Of a stretch of DNA of 64,000 nucleotides, positions 36,033 through 46,344 are shown one piece after another. The notes under the pieces were generated by a model that had not been told where the DNA came from, did not search any database, and saw only the letters and a program-made list of their open reading frames with translations. Both the position numbers and the translations under genes were made by a program. The DNA is taken from the NCBI GenBank assembly GCA_049322915.1, contig JBMOPW010000014.1, positions 128,001 to 192,000 of the forward strand, in the 5' to 3' direction. Positions within the stretch are counted from its first letter, which is position 1, and each line of letters opens with the position of its first letter. Source of the DNA: Candidatus Zhuqueibacterota bacterium (GTDB lineage: Bacteria; Zhuqueibacterota; Zhuqueibacteria; Thermofontimicrobiales; Thermofontimicrobiaceae).

Positions 36033-37202
36033 ATGAGGTATAAAGGAGCACGACTGTTTCCAGTTTTATTTTTACTTCTTCTCTCTTCTTCATTTTGCTC
36101 CCGGACGCCCGGAGAAGCGCCAAAAAATGTGAGTGACATCATCCAACAGGTGGCACAAAAGCATTGTCCGGATAAACGGGTCTCTGTCTTTCAGGTAGCG
36201 GCTCAAAAACAGAGCCATACGATTATTGTCACCGGCGAAGTGTTGTCCGGCGAGGCCAAATCAGAGGTGGTGAATCGTATTCAGTCAGAGACAGACTACG
36301 AGGTGGCCGATAGCATCAAGGTGCTGCCGGATGATTCGCTGAACGGAAAAATATATGGCGTCATCAAAGTGAGTGTGGCCCAGGTCCGAAGAAACAGCGA
36401 CGTCTATTACGAGACAATCAGCCAGGCGACAATGGGCGCGGAAGTGAAAGTGCTGAAACGAAGAGGCGGCTTCTGGGTCTATTGTCAGCTCGAGGATGAC
36501 TATCTGGGCTGGCTGATGGAAAGCGCGCTTGTGACAGGGGACGAGCAGTTCATCCGAAACTGGCGCAGCCTGGACAAAGTCATCGTGACCGCCACCCATG
36601 ATCAAATCTGGGAACAGCCACAGGCCTCCGGCAAAGCAGTCTCCGATGCGGTCTGGGGCAATGTTCTGATCGACCGCGGCAGCAATGGCAACTGGCGCAA
36701 GGTGGAGTTGGCCGACGGAAGAAGCGGGTACATCCCGGCGTCTTCGGTGATGGATTTGAAAAAGATGGAACAGGTTCCGGGCGATCCTGAAATCATGGTG
36801 GAATTGGCCTATCGGTTCATCGGCATTCCCTATTTCTGGGGCGGTCGCTCGACCAAGGGATTCGATTGTTCCGGCTTCACTCAGACATTGTACAAATCCA
36901 TCGGAATCCAACTGCCGCGCGATGCCAATATGCAGGTGAAAATCGGAGAGGAAGTGGCCATCGACGACCAGTTCGGCCAGTTGAAAACCGGCGACCTGCT
37001 GTTCTTTGGAAAAAGCATCGATAAAATCACTCATGTTGGTTTTTATCTTGGCGACCAAAAATTAATCCACTCCGACGGCCGGGTGAAGATCAACAGCTTT
37101 AATCCGCAGGACGAGGATTACAGCGAGTATCGGAGAAATGGCTTGCAGGCGGTGCGCCGGATTTTGAACGAGAAACAGACGGAACCGATCCTGGAGAAAT
37201 AA
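36033..37202 (+). CDS. SH3b + NlpC/P60 (C40) gamma-D-Glu-mDAP peptidase, YkfC-like, exported
   Basis: Signal or lipoprotein leader, SQATMG, two SH3-like segments, GIPYFWGG, GFDCSGF, LPRDA, GDLLFFG, THVG and IHS. Confidence 0.88.
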   Translation: MRYKGARLFPVLFLLLLSSSFCSRTPGEAPKNVSDIIQQVAQKHCPDKRVSVFQVAAQKQSHTIIVTGEVLSGEAKSEVVNRIQSETDYEVADSIKVLPDDSLNGKIYGVIKVSVAQVRRNSDVYYETISQATMGAEVKVLKRRGGFWVYCQLEDDYLGWLMESALVTGDEQFIRNWRSLDKVIVTATHDQIWEQPQASGKAVSDAVWGNVLIDRGSNGNWRKVELADGRSGYIPASSVMDLKKMEQVPGDPEIMVELAYRFIGIPYFWGGRSTKGFDCSGFTQTLYKSIGIQLPRDANMQVKIGEEVAIDDQFGQLKTGDLLFFGKSIDKITHVGFYLGDQKLIHSDGRVKINSFNPQDEDYSEYRRNGLQAVRRILNEKQTEPILEK

Positions 37203-37451
37203 TATTTTGGGCGCTGCGATTGAAATTCAGCGCGACGTGAGCCATATTCAGGTTCTCATGCCCGGATGGCTGGAGCATCGGCGCGTGACAGGCGTTTTTC
37301 TGAATGTAGCCCGGCAAGCGAGATCAATCCGGCGCTGACTGAGCCTCCGAAGTGGTTTCGATCTGAGAGTAAAAAAAATGGAATGGCGAACAGCGATTCG
37401 GTGAATTGTTAAATCGAACGCCATTCCGCCAAAACAATGGAGTCGATACCC

Positions 37452-38594
37452 ATGAACATGACACGAAAGCAATTCTTGAAAGCCAGCGGCAAAGCGATCG
37501 TTGGATTGAGCGCGCTTAACGCCGGCGTCTTACCATTCACTCAACTCACTGGTTCCAGTGACCCTATAGGAGGAGCAATGTTAGAATATAAAATTAAAGA
37601 GCTCAATTTGCGACACACATGGACCATTGCCAGAAATTCATCGGATGTGAAACGCAATGTATTCGTAAAATACACGCGCGACGGAATCACCGGCATTGGC
37701 GAAGCAGCGCCGAATGTCCGTTACGATGAGACGCCGGAGAGCACCATCGGATTGATTCAAAAAGCTGAACCGCTGGTGGAGAAGTTCGATCCGTGGCATT
37801 TTGTCGACATGGGCTATGAAATTCAGAAATTGGATAAGGCGCAGACCGCCGGCAAATGCGCCGTGGATATTGCCATCATGGACTGGGTCGGCAAGAGCCT
37901 CGGCGTTCCCATTTACAAATATCTGGGTCTGGATAAAAACAAGACGCCATTGACTTCATTCAGCATCGGCATCGATACCCCGGAAGTGATGCAGGCGAAA
38001 ATTAAAGAAGCGGAAGAATATCCCATCCTGAAAATCAAGGTCGGCAAGGATAACGACGAGGAAATCATGGATGCGGTGCGGGCCGTGACCGATAAGACGC
38101 TGCGTCTCGACGCCAATGAAGGCTGGAAGACAAAAGAAGAAGCGCTGGAAAAAATTTTGTGGCTGGAAAAAATGGGGGTTGAATTCATCGAACAGCCGCT
38201 GCCGTCGCACATGCTGGAAGAACAGCGCTGGTTGCGCGAGCGCGTGAGTATGCCCATCATTGCCGATGAGGCGGTGAAGAGCGCGGCGGACATTCCCAGT
38301 TTAGCAACCGCATACGACGGCATCAATATCAAACTGATGAAGAGCGCCGGCATTCAGGAGGCGCTGCGCATGATCTGGATGGCGCGTTCGTTGGGAATGA
38401 AAATCATGCTGGGCTGCATGATTGAAAGCAGTTGCGCTATCGCTGCTGCAGCGCACATCAGCCCGCTGGTCGATTTCGCCGATCTGGACGGCAACCTGCT
38501 GGTAGCCAATGACCCGTTCCAGTCCGTCAACGTGGTGAAAGGCCGAATGATTTTGAGCGACGCGCCCGGGCTGGGGCTCGAAGGCGAGTTCTAA
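37452..38594 (+). CDS. L-Ala-D/L-Glu dipeptide epimerase (enolase superfamily, YkfB-like) with Tat-like leader
   Basis: GIGEAAP, KIKVG, DANEGW, IEQP, ADE, NIKLMK, GCMIES and DLDG. N-terminal TRKQFLK. Confidence 0.9.
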   Translation: MNMTRKQFLKASGKAIVGLSALNAGVLPFTQLTGSSDPIGGAMLEYKIKELNLRHTWTIARNSSDVKRNVFVKYTRDGITGIGEAAPNVRYDETPESTIGLIQKAEPLVEKFDPWHFVDMGYEIQKLDKAQTAGKCAVDIAIMDWVGKSLGVPIYKYLGLDKNKTPLTSFSIGIDTPEVMQAKIKEAEEYPILKIKVGKDNDEEIMDAVRAVTDKTLRLDANEGWKTKEEALEKILWLEKMGVEFIEQPLPSHMLEEQRWLRERVSMPIIADEAVKSAADIPSLATAYDGINIKLMKSAGIQEALRMIWMARSLGMKIMLGCMIESSCAIAAAAHISPLVDFADLDGNLLVANDPFQSVNVVKGRMILSDAPGLGLEGEF

Positions 38595-38628
38595 TTTTTT
38601 ATTCAAATTCAATCGAACTGAGACGCAC

Positions 38629-39375
38629 GTGTCAACTATAATTTACGGGAAAAATCCTGTCAGGGAAGCCCTCGAAGCCGGACTGCCGATCCAGAAAATA
38701 TACATCGCGGCCGGCGGCCAGCAGCGCCGGGATCAGCACATTGAGCACCTGGCGCAAAGCCGGGGCATTCCGGTCCGACTGGTGGATCGCAAGAAATTGA
38801 TCGAACTGGCCGGGGAGCAGAACACCCAGGGCATCGTGGCGATTGTCCCTGACTTCGACTACAGCGAACCGGAGAGCGTATTGGATATTGCCCGGCAGAA
38901 GGACGAACCGCCGCTTTGCGTCATCCTCGATGAAATTCAGGACCCGCACAATCTCGGCGCCATCATCCGATCGGCGGAAGCGTTCGGATTTCATGGGATT
39001 TTCATCCCCAAAGATCGGTCGGCCGGCATATCCGATGTAGTTGCTAAAACATCGGCCGGGGCGATTTCGCACATGCCCATCGTTCGGGTCACCAATTTAG
39101 CGCGTCAGATCGATGAATTCAAAGCGCAGGGAATCTGGATTGCCGGGGCTGATCAGGATGCCCTTGCCAGCTACTACGAATCGAATTTGACCGGCCCCCT
39201 GGGCGTGGTCATTGGCAGCGAAGAAAAAGGCATGCGCCGGTTGATCCGCGAGAAGTGCGATTTTCTGGTGAGAATCCCCATGGTCGGTAAAATCAATTCA
39301 TTGAATGCATCGGTCGCTGCGGCGCTGCTGTTTGCAGAGGTGAGAAAACAGCGGACTGTGGGATTTAAGAAATAA
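38629..39375 (+). CDS. rlmB: 23S rRNA (guanosine-2'-O)-methyltransferase RlmB
   Basis: YGKNPVREAL, QGIVA, LDEIQDPHNLGAIIRSA, GSEEKG and SLNASVAA. Confidence 0.92.
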   Translation: MSTIIYGKNPVREALEAGLPIQKIYIAAGGQQRRDQHIEHLAQSRGIPVRLVDRKKLIELAGEQNTQGIVAIVPDFDYSEPESVLDIARQKDEPPLCVILDEIQDPHNLGAIIRSAEAFGFHGIFIPKDRSAGISDVVAKTSAGAISHMPIVRVTNLARQIDEFKAQGIWIAGADQDALASYYESNLTGPLGVVIGSEEKGMRRLIREKCDFLVRIPMVGKINSLNASVAAALLFAEVRKQRTVGFKK

Positions 39376-39391
39376 GGAAGTCTGGTGTTCG

Positions 39392-39428
39392 AAAAAAGGC
39401 GGCCGGCATTCTCAGCCGTCCGCCTTTC
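39392..39428. terminator. Hairpin terminator between convergent rlmB and S8 protease
   Basis: AAAAAAGGCGG...CCGCCTTT. Confidence 0.6.
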
Positions 39429-39445
39429 GTTTGAGGTCATGCGAT

Positions 39446-41725
39446 TTATGGAAGCAGAATCATTTTCTTTGTCTGCGTGAAAGAGCCAGCCTCCAGTCGG
39501 TAGAAATAAATGCCGCTCGATACCGGCTGGCCGGCATTGTCCTTCCCGTTCCATTTTATGTGATAACTCCCTGAAGCCTGTTCCTTCTCCATCAGCGTTT
39601 GAATCGTTTGCCCTAACACATTAATCACCCGCACCGTCACAAAGGACGGAGATTTCAGATAATAGGAAATGACCGTTGTTGGGTTGAACGGATTGGGATA
39701 ATTCTGATACAGCACTGTGGACGTTGGCAGTGTCGGTTCGTCGTCGCGCTGGTCCACCGGGAGATCCAGCAATGCGGCTGCCACATCGATTTTCCCATAG
39801 CCCCATTGATCGTTGGGCATAGTGCCTGTATAGCTATCGTTTCGGCAGGTCTCAATCAGGGAATTCCGCGCCTGAATAGCATCCCGATTCGGATATTTTT
39901 CAAACATGAGCGCGACGACGCCGGCAACGTGAGGAGCGGCCATGCTCGTCCCCTGGGTGAGCGCGTGTTTGTTGTCCGGGCAAATATAGGCATTGGGGTA
40001 ATCGACGCTGCCGGAATTGAAAATTGAATACGTGCCGCTCGGCGGCGCGCTGATCGAATAGCTGGAGGCGATTTTTTCGCCGGGCGCGCAGATTTCCGGT
40101 TTCACGCGGCCATCTCGGGTCGGCCCGGGACTGGAAAAATCCGACACCTCGTTGACCGTCAGTCCGGGGATGTACAGCGAGTTGCCATCCAGATCTGTCC
40201 AGTTCGATTTGGTGACGTAGGAGCCGACAGTGATGGCATTGAACGCTGTGCCCGGCGTGCCGGCAATCATGGTATAGTCAATGTTGGAACTGAAATAGAC
40301 ATCCATAGTGGAGCCGCCCAGCCAGATATCGAACCGGCCAGTAGCGCCAAACACTTTTATTTTCCAGTTGCCGTTCTTGGGCGGCTTATTCGCGTAATAG
40401 TCATAGATCTGAACTAAAACATATTTATCGCCATTCAACGGACTTGGGCCGCCTTTCGCATTAGAAATATAAATCACTCCTTCCGGCGTGTCAAATCCCG
40501 AATCATGACCGCTGGAGACAGGGCCGTAGCTTTCGCCTGATGGGGTGATGATCTGGACGGAATAATTGAAAAGCGCTTCGTACCAGCCATCGAACTGAAT
40601 GATGTCATTCACGTTATCTGCAAGCGGGGTATAGGCCGGCACCGTGAAAATCGATTCGATGGAAGTGGTGCCGCTACCGAAGGCGCCGCTGATGTGAATC
40701 GCTTTCTCGCCATCATTTCCGGCGGAGACAACAACAGCTTTGCCATTGATGCCGGGCCCGACCAGATTATCAATGGCCTGTTCGCCGAGACCTTTACCAT
40801 CGTGCGGGCCGCTGCTTCCACCAAGGCTCAGATTGATGACGTACGGTTTGCCCAACTGTCCGGCGAGACTGTCGATGAAGACTATCGCGTTGATATAATC
40901 GATTTCAGAAAAGCTGATGCTTCCCTGAACCCGGGTTGCCTTGACAATGATGAGATCGGCCTTGGGAGCGACGCCCAGGTAGGTTCCGGCCGCAACGCCA
41001 TTGCCAGTCGCCTGACCGTTGCCGGCGGCGCAGCCTGCGACATGCGTGCCGTGTCCCACAACATCTGATTCATTGATCGTCCCGATGCCATTCAGCGCGT
41101 TATTGATTTCCTGTTCGGTGTACAGCGTGCCGCCATACTGGTCCGGGCCGTCGAGACTGCCATCTCCGTTGGTGTCGCCGGGGTAGCTGAAATCGAGCAT
41201 GGCTTTGATGCGCGTGGTCCCGTTGCTGTTGCGGAAGTCCATGTGCCGCCAGTCGATGCCGGTATCCACCACGCCGATGATGACTCCCTGTCCTGACACA
41301 TTGTATTGCTGCCAGGCTTGAGTGGCTTTGATCTCGCTCAGACTTTCATCCGTGTGAATCGTCAGTTTTTGAGGCAATTGCAGATAGAAAATTCCATCGT
41401 GCCTGACGATGGTTTCGATGGTTGCCAGCGGAACACAGGCGGTGACGATGTCGCCGATCTGCGCCTGGGCCGATACTCCGAGCGCGCGCAGTTCCGTTGT
41501 TGTGAGCGATGTTTTTATCAGCATCGGAATGAATTCAATGGAAGAGGAGGCAGCGCCTTCGGTCAAATGTTTGGTGAGAGCGACTCGCAATTCGGGCCGT
41601 TCCAACATCAGCGCAATTTTGGGGTCGAGTTTTTTATACGCGTCGCCGGACAATTGACCTGCCATCAACGGCACATATAATAGGCTTAAGAATATGGCTG
41701 TAAAAATTTTTGTCTTCAGATTCAT
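39446..41725 (-). CDS. Secreted S8 subtilase with propeptide, jelly-roll insertion and FlgD/T9SS-type CTD
   Basis: Signal peptide. Catalytic triad VVDTGID / GHGTHVAG / GTSMAAPHVAG, oxyanion SAGN, and QNYPNPFNPTT...SGIYFYRL. Confidence 0.93.
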   Translation of the reverse strand: MNLKTKIFTAIFLSLLYVPLMAGQLSGDAYKKLDPKIALMLERPELRVALTKHLTEGAASSSIEFIPMLIKTSLTTTELRALGVSAQAQIGDIVTACVPLATIETIVRHDGIFYLQLPQKLTIHTDESLSEIKATQAWQQYNVSGQGVIIGVVDTGIDWRHMDFRNSNGTTRIKAMLDFSYPGDTNGDGSLDGPDQYGGTLYTEQEINNALNGIGTINESDVVGHGTHVAGCAAGNGQATGNGVAAGTYLGVAPKADLIIVKATRVQGSISFSEIDYINAIVFIDSLAGQLGKPYVINLSLGGSSGPHDGKGLGEQAIDNLVGPGINGKAVVVSAGNDGEKAIHISGAFGSGTTSIESIFTVPAYTPLADNVNDIIQFDGWYEALFNYSVQIITPSGESYGPVSSGHDSGFDTPEGVIYISNAKGGPSPLNGDKYVLVQIYDYYANKPPKNGNWKIKVFGATGRFDIWLGGSTMDVYFSSNIDYTMIAGTPGTAFNAITVGSYVTKSNWTDLDGNSLYIPGLTVNEVSDFSSPGPTRDGRVKPEICAPGEKIASSYSISAPPSGTYSIFNSGSVDYPNAYICPDNKHALTQGTSMAAPHVAGVVALMFEKYPNRDAIQARNSLIETCRNDSYTGTMPNDQWGYGKIDVAAALLDLPVDQRDDEPTLPTSTVLYQNYPNPFNPTTVISYYLKSPSFVTVRVINVLGQTIQTLMEKEQASGSYHIKWNGKDNAGQPVSSGIYFYRLEAGSFTQTKKMILLP

Positions 41726-41737
41726 GATGCAGTCTCC

Positions 41738-42118
41738 CTAATATTTTTGAATTTTCCCCAGTGAATCCGATGGTGTCGCTTTTACGGTTCGTGAGCTTTG
41801 AATGGTTTCCACGAATTTCATTTTTGATAAGTCATATACGGCATGCGCCGGAACAGAAGCTGTATAAATAGTCCCGATGTTCGCCATGATTTTTATATCT
41901 CTATTGGAGAGAAACGCTTTGTGTTCTTCACCAATGGGCTCATTGACCTTGAAAATTACAGGAATGCGCGTATTCAACTGCCCGGCTTGTTTCAATTGCT
42001 GAAGCTGTAATTTCAGCCCGGGGTCCACCTTCTTCTCGAAGTCAGCATCTTTGCATGAAAAAACGCTGACTAAAAAAATCGCAATCAAGTATCGTGACCT
42101 GAAAATGAGATTGAACAA
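41738..42118 (-). CDS. Small lipoprotein resembling a subtilase propeptide (I9-like)
   Basis: GAGGAGG RBS 9 nt before TTG at 42118, lipobox VFS-C, and similarity to the propeptide of the downstream S8 protease. Confidence 0.75.
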   Translation of the reverse strand: MFNLIFRSRYLIAIFLVSVFSCKDADFEKKVDPGLKLQLQQLKQAGQLNTRIPVIFKVNEPIGEEHKAFLSNRDIKIMANIGTIYTASVPAHAVYDLSKMKFVETIQSSRTVKATPSDSLGKIQKY

Positions 42119-42587
42119 AATGAATCGCCTCCTCGATAGTAATGATAGGTGCAGACATGGACGAGAAAGAAGCGTGACATCCGTCGAGTGCAAAAAACGA
42201 TCGATGGAATAGCTGCAATGAAAAAACAATCCTGAGTCAGAAATGCAGAGCAACCCCATCAGTTCTCGCCATAGCCCCATTGCAGTAATTTCGTGCTCAG
42301 AAATTGCTCAGTCACGTGTTTGTTTTCTCATCATGTTGCGCAGTTTGAGTGGTTAATATAACAATATTACTGATAGAATCAAAGTGAAATTTAAAATGCT
42401 ACGATAAAATAAATGTGTTGATAGTCACAGCAGGTCAAGTTTAGCGAGCGCCGGCGAGAATTGCTGCAGCGCTTTTGTAGGATAGTGTGGCAGCGAAGAA
42501 GACCGACCTGAATATTCGGGCAGAGTTTGAATCGATGACAATATGCAGTGCGTGCGGAGAATATTCAGGTCGATTGGAGAAAAGACA

Positions 42588-43712
42588 TCAGATTTTCTTT
42601 TCGTAAAGACGATAGGTCTTATACACACGGGCGCCGATATTTTTGAGCGCAATGTTCATTGGATCGTTGTTTTCAAGGATCCAGGAGAACTCGCCCCAGG
42701 TGTATCCTTTTGCAATACCTTTTTTGTAAGTATCGACGTAGAACACAGCATCGAGTCCCTTGTTCCTGTATTCTTTGATGATGCCCATGATGATGACTCG
42801 CAGCCGGCTTATTTTACGGCTAAAGTAGAGAAGTTTGAAAATGCCGAAAGGAAACAAGCGCCCGTTGAGTTTGTGGAGAGCCTGATTAATGTCAGGGCAG
42901 GCCAATGAAAAACCAATGGGCTGACCATCGTGCTCCGCGAAAAAGACAATATCCTCGTCGATAATTTGCACCAGATTTTTGGCGATATGCTCCAGTTCGT
43001 GCTCGGTGAGCGGAACAAAGCCGAAGTTCTTCTCCCAGGCATGGTTGTAAACATACTTAATTTTTTCGAGCTCGCTGGCAAAGTCTTTTTTGTCAATTTT
43101 TCTGAAGGTGAATTTGCTGCGGCTTTTCATCTTTTCGACGACATGGATGACCCGATCGGGCATGGGGTTGTCCTTGCTCATTTCATAGGCCCATAAATCC
43201 ATGATTTTGCGGAAGCCGTATTTTTCAATTAATGCCTGATAATAGGGTGGATTGTGAGGCATGAGAATCACCGGGGGCGTGTCGAATCCGTCGACCAGCA
43301 GACCGCAGGTATCGTTTTGCGAGTAGTTTTCCGGGCCGCGAATGCAATCCAGTTTTTTGCGCCGGCCCCATTCCATCACAGCATCCAGCAATTTCGAGGC
43401 GACTTCATCGCTCTGTATGGATTCGAAAAAGCCGAAGAATCCGACGTTCTCCTCATGAATTTGGTTGTGGCGATTATTCAGAATAGCGACAACCGTCCCA
43501 ACGGCGCGTTTGCCGGCGCGAGCGATGAAAAATTCGGCTTCGGAATGCTCGAAGAAGGGATTGGTCTTTTTATTGAAAACATCCTTTTGCTGAGAGATGA
43601 GGGGTGGCACCCAGACCGGGTCATCTTTATAAATTGTCCAGGGCAGTTTGATGAAGTCATTCCAGTCTTTTCGGGAAGAGACAACAGAGACAGTGATTGT
43701 ATCAGGGTTCAT
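42588..43712 (-). CDS. GNAT-fold acyltransferase, YghO / bacterial ceramide synthase (bCerS)-like
   Basis: FIKLPW.IY..DP.WVPPL, NPFF, GFFGFFE, GLLVDGF..PP..LMPHNPPYY, YN.AW..NFGF.P, PDINQ and SWILE.N. Directly downstream of the spt-like gene. Confidence 0.8.
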   Translation of the reverse strand: MNPDTITVSVVSSRKDWNDFIKLPWTIYKDDPVWVPPLISQQKDVFNKKTNPFFEHSEAEFFIARAGKRAVGTVVAILNNRHNQIHEENVGFFGFFESIQSDEVASKLLDAVMEWGRRKKLDCIRGPENYSQNDTCGLLVDGFDTPPVILMPHNPPYYQALIEKYGFRKIMDLWAYEMSKDNPMPDRVIHVVEKMKSRSKFTFRKIDKKDFASELEKIKYVYNHAWEKNFGFVPLTEHELEHIAKNLVQIIDEDIVFFAEHDGQPIGFSLACPDINQALHKLNGRLFPFGIFKLLYFSRKISRLRVIIMGIIKEYRNKGLDAVFYVDTYKKGIAKGYTWGEFSWILENNDPMNIALKNIGARVYKTYRLYEKKI

Positions 43713-43737
43713 GAGCTTCTCCACTTTTATGATGATG

Positions 43738-43792
43738 AAAAAAAACCTGCTTATCCCCCATTTTGTGAAACCGGGACAGGTAAACAGGTTTT
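43738..43792 (-). terminator. Terminator-like hairpin between spt and bCerS-like gene
   Basis: Minus strand AACCTGTTTA...TAAGCAGGTT followed by a long T-run. Confidence 0.5.
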
Positions 43793-43829
43793 AATGTATG
43801 AAAAGATGAGGCAGCATGGAATGGGTTAA

Positions 43830-45020
43830 TCACGATGCAATCAATCCTGATTGTTTGCCAATTTTATAAAATATTTCCAGCACATGATCCAGTTCTTCCG
43901 TTGTATGGGTGGCCATGTAGCTCGTGCGAATGAGCGCATGGTCTGGCTCAACAGCCGGGCTGATGACCGGATTTGAAAAAATACCATTCTCGAACAACAG
44001 CTTCCAGAAGTAGAAGGTTTTGAGATCGTCGCCGATGATGATCGGGATGATGGGGGACTGAGTTACGCCGGTATTAAAACCCATCTCCTCAAATCCTTTT
44101 TTCATTTTATTTGAATTCTTCCACAGTTGCTCCAGCCGCTCCGGTTCGGATTTCAGGATGTCCAATGCGGCATTGACTGTCGCCACGGCCGATGGAGGCA
44201 TACTTGCCGAGAAAATGAGGGCGCGGGCATGGTGCTTAATGTAATTGATGACTTTTTTCTCGCCAGCAAGGAAGCCGCCGAGGGAGGCGAATGATTTGCT
44301 GAACGTGCCCATAATCAGGTCGATGCTGTCGTTCATGCCAAAATGCTCGCCGGTGCCGCGTCCGTGTTTCCCGAGGACGCCGCAGGAATGCGCATCGTCG
44401 ATCATGATGCGCGCGCCGAATTCTCTGGCCAGTTTCGCCATCTCCGGTAATTTAACAATGTCCCCCTCCATGCTGAATACGCCATCGGAAACGATCAATT
44501 TGCCGGCAGTATCGCTGTCGTTGGTTTCCAGCACCCGACGCAGATCGTCCATGTCGTTGTGTTTGAATTTATAAGTGCGACCAAACGAAAGCCGGCAGCC
44601 ATCGATGATGCTGGCGTGATTGGCTCGATCGCTGAACACTAGATCGTTCTTGCCGATGATGGTGGAAATTGCACCCTGATTTGTTTGAAATCCGGTGGAA
44701 AAAACCAGCGTCGCCTCTTTCTGGACAAAGTCGGCCAACTTTTCCTCCAGCTCTTCGTGCAGCGTGAGCGTTCCATTGAGAAACCGTGAACCGGTACACC
44801 CGGAACCGAATGTTTCGAGCGCATCGATGGCTGCTTTTTTGACGCGCGGATCCTGAGTCAAACCGAGGTAGTTGTTCGATCCAATCATGATGAATTTTTT
44901 GCCGTCGATCATCACCGTCGAACCGGCGCCCGATTGAATCGCTTTGAAGTAAGGATAGTAACCCTGAGCCTGTGCTTCTTCAACTCGCGTATAGGTGTAA
45001 GCCTTCTGAAATAAGTCCAA
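43830..45020 (-). CDS. spt: PLP-dependent alpha-oxoamine synthase, most likely serine palmitoyltransferase
   Basis: YPYF, GSNNYLGL, GSGCTGSRFLNGTL, NHASIIDG, DDAH, GTFSKS (PLP Lys) and IFSAS. TTG start with AAGGAG RBS. Confidence 0.8.
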   Translation of the reverse strand: MDLFQKAYTYTRVEEAQAQGYYPYFKAIQSGAGSTVMIDGKKFIMIGSNNYLGLTQDPRVKKAAIDALETFGSGCTGSRFLNGTLTLHEELEEKLADFVQKEATLVFSTGFQTNQGAISTIIGKNDLVFSDRANHASIIDGCRLSFGRTYKFKHNDMDDLRRVLETNDSDTAGKLIVSDGVFSMEGDIVKLPEMAKLAREFGARIMIDDAHSCGVLGKHGRGTGEHFGMNDSIDLIMGTFSKSFASLGGFLAGEKKVINYIKHHARALIFSASMPPSAVATVNAALDILKSEPERLEQLWKNSNKMKKGFEEMGFNTGVTQSPIIPIIIGDDLKTFYFWKLLFENGIFSNPVISPAVEPDHALIRTSYMATHTTEELDHVLEIFYKIGKQSGLIAS

Positions 45021-45066
45021 TTGAGTTCTCCTTATGAATGGTTATCTTATCGCATAAGTCAAGGCA

Positions 45067-45095
45067 AATATAAAAATCATTTTAGCCATTGTCAA
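45067..45095 (-). promoter_or_regulatory. sigma70-type promoter of spt
   Basis: Minus strand TTGACA-N17-TATATT. Confidence 0.65.
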
Positions 45096-45135
45096 GATTA
45101 AAAGTTTAGTAACTGTAAAATTAATAAAACTACTG

Positions 45136-45164
45136 TTGCATTTTTTCATTAGAGTTTGTATTTT
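45136..45164 (+). promoter_or_regulatory. Divergent promoter for the SDR (CerR-like) gene
   Basis: TTGCAT-N17-TATTTT with TG just before the -10. Confidence 0.45.
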
Positions 45165-45363
45165 CAGGAGTAGACAGAGAAAAAAATAGAACCCGATGCA
45201 TGTGTCGGATGCGATCAGCGCTGCTGAACGGCCGCTTTATTCCTGCTCTGTCGCAGTGTGCGGGGAGTACAAAGGATAAAATGAAAATGGGCTTTTCAAG
45301 CCGGGCTGGCCGGCTTTGCCAAAGGCAAATTTACGATCTGTAATTCAAGTCAGGGGAAAATTC

Positions 45364-46344
45364 ATGCGCGTGCTTGTCACCGGCAGCAATGGTTTTATTG
45401 GAAGCCATCTGGTCGAACGGCTTGTGAGCCGGAACGATGAAGTGCTCTGCCTCGTTCGAAAGACGAGTCGTCTCACATGGATAGAGCAACTTCCGGTCAC
45501 ATTTGTCTATGGAGATGTGTGTGACTCGGATTCGCTTCGCTCCATTGTTCAGGGCGTTGATTACGTCTATCATCTCGGCGGAGTTGTCCGGGCCAGATCA
45601 GAAGCGGAATTCATTCGGGTCAATGTCGAGGGCACAAAAAACCTGCTGGAGGCGTGCCGGCTGAACAATCCCCGGCTGCGACGATTTGTGCTGGTCTCCA
45701 GCCAGGCCGCGGCCGGCCCGAGCCCTGACAGGACGCCGCTCACCGAAGACGTCCCGCCTCGGCCAATTTCAGCATACGGCCGGAGCAAAATGCAGGCGGA
45801 GTCCGCAGTGATGAGTTATAGGAGATTTTTTCCGTACACCATTATCCGGCCGCCGTCGGTGTACGGCCGGCGCGATGATGATATTTTTGTCATTTTCAAA
45901 GCGGTAAAATTTGGTGTGAAACTGTTGATCGGCTGGAGAAATAAAAAAATCAGCCTGGTTCATGTCGATGATTTAACTCGGGGAATATGCCTGGCGGCCG
46001 AATCGGATCGGGCGGAGAACCAGGTGTTTTCCATCGCCAATCCGGAGGCGTATGACTGGCTGGAAATTATGAACGAAATCAGTCGCGCACTGGGGACAAA
46101 CGCGATGACAATAAGGATTCCTGAATCGTTACTGAGTTTCATGGCCGGGCTGAATGAGAAGCTCGCCCGCGTCCTGCATTCGGAGGCGGTGTTCAACATG
46201 GACAAAGCGAATGAGATGAAACAGGATTACTGGCTGATCAGCAGCGTCAAGGCGGCGAAGTTGCTGGATTTCAAAACTCAAATCGATCTGGAACAGGGAT
46301 TGAGGGATACGGCGATCTGGTATAAGCAACAGGGCTGGTTGTAA
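45364..46344 (+). CDS. NAD(P)-dependent extended SDR, putative ceramide reductase (CerR-like)
   Basis: VTGSNGFIG, VSSQAA.GP, P.SAYGRSK, RPP.VYG and VHVDDL. Transcribed divergently from spt. Confidence 0.72.
   Translation: MRVLVTGSNGFIGSHLVERLVSRNDEVLCLVRKTSRLTWIEQLPVTFVYGDVCDSDSLRSIVQGVDYVYHLGGVVRARSEAEFIRVNVEGTKNLLEACRLNNPRLRRFVLVSSQAAAGPSPDRTPLTEDVPPRPISAYGRSKMQAESAVMSYRRFFPYTIIRPPSVYGRRDDDIFVIFKAVKFGVKLLIGWRNKKISLVHVDDLTRGICLAAESDRAENQVFSIANPEAYDWLEIMNEISRALGTNAMTIRIPESLLSFMAGLNEKLARVLHSEAVFNMDKANEMKQDYWLISSVKAAKLLDFKTQIDLEQGLRDTAIWYKQQGWL

Follow-up and report, generated by a model that had tools for sequence, protein, structure and literature searches.

The window analysed here, a stretch of 64,000 nucleotides from a Candidatus Zhuqueibacterota bacterium (assembly GCA_049322915.1, contig JBMOPW010000014.1, positions 128,001 to 192,000), carries on its reverse strand the gene for a predicted lipoprotein of 126 residues directly upstream of the gene for a CspB-like subtilase of peptidase family S8. 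The small protein is a true stand-alone homologue of subtilase propeptides, and it probably serves, as far as can be read from sequence, as a tethered, trans-acting competitive inhibitor that would act on the adjacent protease once its catalytic domain is mature. This reading builds on the fold class, the lipobox, the linkage to S8 genes in numerous uncultured bacteria, the co-inheritance with them and the register of the C-terminal tail, each of which was observed.

A stand-alone propeptide homologue with a lipobox

The lipoprotein gene (41738..42118, minus strand) starts with TTG at 42118, after a 9-nt spacer that follows a ribosome-binding site, GAGGAGG, read from the sequence at 42134-42128 on the same strand, and stops with TAG at 41740-41738. 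The stop codon and the ATG of the S8 gene at 41725 are separated by 12 nt, a gap that suggests coupling of the two genes, and the final G of the TAG is the first letter of the GGGAG upstream of the S8 gene. This is the layout given in a preliminary description of the locus. The TTG start is backed by all four non-self homologues, which have 126 residues and begin in the same alignment column; a longer frame opening with ATG at 42280 lacked homologue support at its start and was rejected. The ratio of non-synonymous to synonymous substitution rates (dN/dS) is 0.11 against the same-genus orthologue, and 0.07-0.24 in four of five pairs, the fifth being saturated. The hydrophobic leader ends in VFS-C22, and the signal peptide with its lipobox (42053..42118, minus strand), where the structural model has a helix at residues 3-20, contains the predicted lipidated Cys22, which is conserved in 20/20 aligned orthologues, in agreement with the earlier assignment as a lipoprotein.

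When the small protein was aligned with the N-terminus of the protease by BLASTP, 21% identity over 132 columns was found (E 7e-4 for the pair), in the same three blocks that had previously been picked out by eye, and the local score was reached by 7 of 5000 shuffles. Comparison of profiles from 20 lipoproteins and 17 neighbouring propeptides with hhalign gave a probability (Prob) of 98.55 (E 1.5e-15, 89 columns), against 0.33 for a reversed profile and 0.25 for the catalytic domain. The pairwise likeness is thus weak but above chance, while the profile comparison is clear.

The AlphaFold2 model of the lipoprotein, for which 138 sequences were used, has a predicted local distance difference test score (pLDDT) of 92.3 and consists of a leader helix, a second helix and then a beta-alpha-beta-beta-alpha-beta domain; the propeptide fold covers approximately residues 27-108 (41795..42040, minus strand). 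Among 48,161 solved chains searched with VIA-align, the best match was ProN of Tk-SP (PDB 3afg; Z 11.3, root-mean-square deviation (rmsd) 4.5, 86 aligned), followed by the CspB prodomain (PF18425, PDB 4i0w; Z 7.5, rmsd 3.5, 90 aligned). POIA1 (1v5i_B) came ninth (Z 6.1, rmsd 2.8), its full length lying on model residues 50-115, and seven of the top nine rows are titled as subtilase pro-domains, pro-forms, subtilisin complexes or POIA1. An Atlas structure search likewise indicated S8 N-termini, and the propeptide fold suspected at the outset was thereby upheld by both profile and structure. The two best matches are cis parts of zymogens, whereas the domain studied here is encoded on its own, by a gene that has a start, a lipobox and a stop. 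Clusters of 93-108 residues from Bacillota, auto-named CspB prodomain, are also present in the Atlas, so that the free form is already in databases.

In Pfam, the window lipoprotein had no match, including Inhibitor_I9 (PF05922), at E 1, and PF05922 was not among the families listed for the 138 members at E 0.01. CspB_prodomain (PF18425) was matched by 17 of these 138 relatives at E up to 0.01 (best 4e-9), and not by the window protein. PDB sequence-profile searches with the small protein found no relative.

Linkage to S8 genes and origin of the family

Of 61 relatives, 26 have the lipoprotein, with one match each, and within its order it is present in 18 of 20. Neighbourhoods were read for 67 small genes, comprising 65 short-frame matches of a search of the phylum (167 genomes) and two loci from pattern scans. 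An S8 gene lies directly downstream of 49 of them and directly upstream of 8, whereas 5 sit at a contig edge and 5 have no S8 gene; a same-strand S8 gene hence adjoins 57 of the 62 testable members, and the survey of gene pairs that had been proposed earlier came out in favour of the pairing. The pattern scans, made with one subfamily (7 sequences), yielded one locus in 31 genome-contig stretches and one in 104 metagenome stretches. L061, from a genome outside the phylum sample, has the same layout with an S8 gene whose C-terminal tail is different; it is the single locus that carries the linkage outside the phylum; L062 ends at the gene. Among 100 relatives of the L061 genome, no match was obtained at E 1e-8.

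Trees of the small proteins and of the S8 proteases were compared for 51 of the 57 adjacent pairs, those with a near-complete catalytic domain, and were found to agree (Spearman 0.67, 0/999 permutations), the nearest neighbour being shared in 47 of 51. L037, the second cassette in its genome, groups in both trees with L068, which comes from a distant family; this is as expected if the cassette moves as one piece. In seven loci (L039, L040, L058-L060, L077 and L080) a small protein without a signal peptide is paired with an S8 protein that also lacks one, and the order is reversed, with the S8 gene first and the small gene second. Two lipoprotein-S8 cassettes stand in tandem in L033 (G120:C234), each with its own small gene, and their small proteins come from different branches. 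At L037:3978-4301, a small frame before an exported S8 has neither an in-frame start codon nor a leader, and may be broken or truncated by a stop codon further upstream.

The preliminary description had regarded the lipoprotein as a duplicated copy of the protease's own propeptide, and this part of it did not hold. The score was 45 against the neighbour's propeptide, which ranked 22 among 36 propeptides, while the median score with other small proteins was 111; the own-neighbour propeptide took rank 1 in 4 of 36 pairs. Against propeptides of unlinked S8 genes (7 of 19 such propeptides were used) the lipoprotein profile reached Prob 98.95, as good as or better than the value for the linked ones. 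In a 78-row tree, the 17 lipoproteins of the window's order form one group with a support of 92 in the Shimodaira-Hasegawa-like approximate likelihood ratio test (SH-aLRT), and the order's propeptides are separate (SH-aLRT 95, 14 rows), with one long branch outside. A free tree of small genes and propeptides requires 5 label changes, and a single clade of all small genes was not rejected in the approximately unbiased test (p-AU 0.726). Recent duplication of the neighbour's propeptide was rejected on the rank, the scores and the tree.

A search of 1.84 billion representatives matched the small-protein family to 285 clusters (50% identity). Among the best 150 of these matches, 149 have at most 220 residues (median 120), three of the 149 being S8 fragments, and a crude motif rule assigned a lipobox to 65 of the 150, another leader to 37 and none to 48. 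No longer proteins matching the family were found at E 0.01, which is weak evidence. Members are annotated as hypothetical wherever they are named, and close homologues of the small protein are labelled candidate division KSB1, which points to that phylum for the window. Because the own-neighbour rank is low, lipoproteins and propeptides fall into separate tree groups and the matches are short, the small protein is, by its sequence relationships, a member of an old, unnamed family of free prodomains; the split from true propeptides is old and took place before the spread of the window's order. A few proteins of 185-220 residues (P0022, P0025, P0078, P0082 and P0096) apparently consist of two propeptide-like repeats and have no protease domain.

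These data also bear on whether the protein could protect broadly against subtilases that are foreign or paralogous, with the linkage as a mere trace of the gene's birthplace. The good fit to unlinked propeptides, the few first ranks of the own neighbour and the five members without an S8 gene nearby would all be expected of such a guard. However, the linkage holds across classes and divergent S8 clades, the tandem cassettes of L033 each have their own small gene and the two trees agree, and we regard this explanation as quite improbable.

The neighbouring protease and the proposed mode of inhibition

The protease gene (39446..41725, minus strand) encodes 759 residues that match Pfam Peptidase_S8 (E 1.7e-41), and the best PDB match is CspB (4i0w_B, E 3.5e-33). 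The protein has a signal peptide and its own propeptide, which by alignment spans approximately residues 24-124 (41354..41656, minus strand), the mature start being taken from the CspB register with autocleavage presumably after His124. The catalytic domain (39761..41353, minus strand), delimited by orthologue and CspB alignments, contains the triad Asp154, His225 and Ser594, invariant in 23/23 aligned orthologues, and an insertion that at the level of sequence alignment runs through the inserted domain of CspB, a jellyroll in Csp-type subtilases. With NCBIfam scores of 134.8 bits for CspBA (cut-off 1250) and 95.1 bits for CspC (cut-off 675) the protease falls far below the Csp cut-offs, and is accordingly CspB-like and not a germination protein. 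Its C-terminus is a sorting domain of type A of the type IX secretion system (T9SS), FlgD-like (39449..39700, minus strand), which scores above the cut-offs of PF18962 and TIGR04183; the genome holds two PorU sortase genes above cut-off, which supports the T9SS parallel drawn earlier.

The register of the lipoprotein's C-terminal tail (41741..41794, minus strand) was set by aligning the conserved Gln/Glu in the last strand, and the presumed P1 of the protease (His124) lies 8 residues further; V112, T115 and P116 are then in register with the putative P4, P1 and P1' of the protease junction. Among 146 homologues (the best 150 matches minus four that are S8 fragments or a chance match), 135 extend as far as P1, 44 end exactly at it, and 3 fall short of it by more than one residue. 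The fold search places model residues 115-116 opposite the final residue of three solved chains, namely the CspB prodomain, the Tk-subtilisin propeptide and POIA1. The tails of the order's orthologues extend beyond P1, with a hydrophobic P4 in 19/20 and DS at P3'-P4' in 14/20, like the uncut junction of the zymogen. Proline occurs within P1-P2' in 11 of these 20 (7 at P1', including the window protein) versus 0 of 36 protease junctions. Proline at P1' hinders cleavage by subtilisin.

Under the proposed inhibition, the two genes would be co-transcribed and both proteins would pass Sec. The protease would fold on its own propeptide and then cut after His124, and enzyme whose propeptide is lost in the envelope, be it ahead of T9SS export or after it, would be caught by the tethered lipoprotein. 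The beta-sheet of the latter would dock on the propeptide site with residues 112-115 filling S4-S1, and with Pro116 at P1' the tail would be cut more slowly. The active site of CspB is gated by the final three residues of its prodomain, in trans too (PMC3567191).

The tail could also act as a switch, if the lipoprotein stored the enzyme at the membrane or exchanged with the retained propeptide, and cleavage of the tail then released active protease. Such a tether or timer would suit the order's tails, which pass P1 and resemble an uncut junction, and CspB-type prodomains do remain bound after autoprocessing (PMC3567191), so that their removal needs a trigger. On the other hand, the homologues that end exactly at P1 offer nothing to cut, the versions without a signal peptide have no anchor and the protease is equipped with a T9SS-type sorting tail of its own, and we consider this role unlikely. 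That the domain has been repurposed and its contact with the protease lost is very improbable: the alpha/beta plait is a common fold, for which unrelated chains reach Z 5-6.9, and the identity to the neighbour's propeptide is low, but the tail almost never falls short of P1, P4 stays hydrophobic and the gene remains beside S8 genes.

The small protein might instead be a trans-acting chaperone that aids folding or refolding of the catalytic domain in the envelope. The CspB prodomain, supplied in trans, rescues folding (PMC3567191), the Aeromonas protease ASP requires a chaperone encoded beside it (PMC5638518), and between the window and G001 the lipoprotein has changed more slowly than the neighbour's own propeptide (dN 0.235 vs 0.442). 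Nevertheless, a full propeptide is kept in all 17 aligned neighbouring proteases, unlike ASP, and no partner was seen next to any of the 23 orthologous proteases inspected in other families, which makes a chaperone role rather improbable. Of the earlier suggestion that a trans inhibitor or chaperone protects the envelope, the inhibitor part is favoured, whereas an obligatory chaperone or an essential immunity role has been weakened by the frequent occurrence of close protease orthologues that lack the small gene.

Competitive inhibition by a tethered partner has, for its part, to be weighed against a number of observations that speak against it. A close orthologue of the protease was found in 71 of 125 genomes of the class; the small gene is directly upstream in 25 of these, but 45 gave no short-frame match in the phylum search, and in G017 both genes are present on different contigs, unlinked. 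When 23 of those 45 loci were read directly, no small partner was seen, one upstream side being cut by a contig end. By this comparison of loci, the protease can manage without a small partner. Conversely, G015 (100% complete) has kept the lipoprotein with only a distant S8 paralogue found, and three small genes without a signal peptide (L057, L076 and L081, two of them on one G120 contig) have no S8 gene nearby. The members are kin and not independent, so that the tree agreement and the proline counts are overstated, and the seven signal-less pairs, all from one genus, count as one event. A K-(D/E)2 export-like motif, which marks surface export in Bacteroidetes (PMC5080379) and concerns the membrane face, is present in 5/20 lipoprotein orthologues and absent from the window protein. 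The autocleavage site at His124 is derived from alignments, Z exceeded 8 for the top fold match only, and unrelated ferredoxin-like folds reached Z values up to 6.9.

Among 20 long S8 loci chosen for the lack of a strong small match, one (L098) has a divergent partner. In loci with an orthologous S8 gene and no small partner (L105, L107 and L109-L124), a conserved gene for a charged, probably coiled-coil protein of 100-190 residues is often found 3' of the S8 gene.

Surrounding genes, known counterparts and implications

Upstream of the lipoprotein gene, the intergenic gap contains a candidate sigma-70-type promoter with an extended -10 (42355..42382, minus strand), a weak match to the consensus (9/12); promoter-type sites numbered 7 versus a shuffle mean of 3.9. 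A terminator-like hairpin downstream of the protease gene (39400..39418, minus strand) is likewise a consensus match, weak alone, and 3 terminator-like sites were found versus a shuffle mean of 4.1. No Rfam match was obtained within 38000-46000 of the window, a region that includes an inverted repeat with perfect 14-bp arms and a 41-nt loop (42504-42572) just past the stop of a GCN5-related N-acetyltransferase (GNAT) gene. The GNAT gene (42588-43724) is directly upstream of the lipoprotein gene, and several loci of the family have a similar GNAT frame ahead of the small gene. Further upstream lie a serine-palmitoyltransferase-like gene (43830-45020; NCBIfam SerpalmtaseCFB 573.5 bits, below the cut-off of 640) and a divergent NAD-dependent epimerase/short-chain dehydrogenase (45316-46344). 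The region 42588-46344 resembles the bacterial ceramide gene set (Spt, ceramide synthase and reductase). At 36033-38594, an NlpC/P60-SH3 dipeptidyl-peptidase gene adjoins an enolase-superfamily (dipeptide epimerase-like) gene, an ordinary-looking pair for peptidoglycan recycling.

The SpeB-Spi pair of Streptococcus pyogenes resembles the present cassette in that a bacterial protease gene adjoins an inhibitor gene of the propeptide-analogue type. SpeB is a C10 cysteine protease with a different propeptide fold, and Spi is not known to carry a lipid anchor. Spi is a propeptide analogue and a specific inhibitor, encoded beside SpeB (PMC2873492). Subtilase inhibitors that are free proteins with a propeptide fold are known, and characterised, from fungi, plants and apicomplexans (PMC6993865). 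One of them, SUB1-ProM of Plasmodium, is a free propeptide-like inhibitor whose gene lies among subtilisin genes (PMC6993865); it is eukaryotic and targets another S8 branch, whereas the window protein is bacterial, with a lipobox and a two-gene cassette. Other stand-alone inhibitors of MEROPS family I9 are Pleurotus POIA1, the yeast peptidase B inhibitor and Arabidopsis SPI-1 (PMC6993865), likewise small free proteins with a propeptide fold; the family described here differs by a further helix at the N-terminus, which ProN-Tk-SP and CspB prodomains also have, by a signal peptide in most cases, and by the lack of a PF05922 match. In its predicted fold, its own gene with ribosome-binding site, start and stop, and a tail that would reach S4-S1, the small protein corresponds to the I9 type of MEROPS.

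Co-encoded bacterial protease inhibitors have been called rare (PMC9890683). The potempins of Tannerella, such as PotC for the S8 protease mirolase, are encoded by lipoprotein genes directly upstream of T9SS protease genes and co-transcribed with them, and are nanomolar competitive inhibitors of the linked enzyme, beta-barrels that inhibit through loops (PMC9890683). The gene arrangement is the same as in the window, but the window protein has, according to its model, a four-stranded alpha/beta propeptide fold with helices; it is not a potempin, nor is it a Pfam I9 member. Aeromonas ASP has no propeptide and folds only with ORF2 from an adjacent small gene (PMC5638518); there, too, a bacterial subtilase-family protease has a small trans-acting partner next to it, but the protease studied here retains its own propeptide. 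Myxococcus PopD, considered as a possible precedent, binds PopC and blocks its secretion, the passages on it describing no fold (PMC6434023). The earlier statement that the arrangement had not been described must be given up for its kind, in view of SUB1-ProM (PMC6993865) and Spi (PMC2873492), but stands for the bacterial S8 form: no description of a bacterial free S8 prodomain lipoprotein was found in full-text literature searches, most subscription papers being beyond reach.

A more far-reaching reading, possible but doubtful, is that the family, widespread in bacteria, is a portable protease-control cassette, with each small-protein copy in the compartment of its protease. The order's lipoprotein would then imitate the zymogen junction without being cleavable, having Pro at P1' and DS beyond, and would displace a retained CspB-type prodomain or take its place, thereby governing the time and place at which the enzyme becomes active. 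If true, subtilases would have here their first I9-like trans regulator from bacteria, which would also give a handle on the removal of retained prodomains.

The small protein, real, conserved and unnamed, is likely a bacterial form, with a predicted lipid anchor, of the free I9-type inhibitor. With at least 285 clusters at 50% identity, the family would add a common bacterial class of free propeptide-fold inhibitors, supply naturally occurring tight inhibitors of CspB-like proteases, and illustrate how a domain can become a gene for an immunity protein, with a signal peptide turned into a lipobox.

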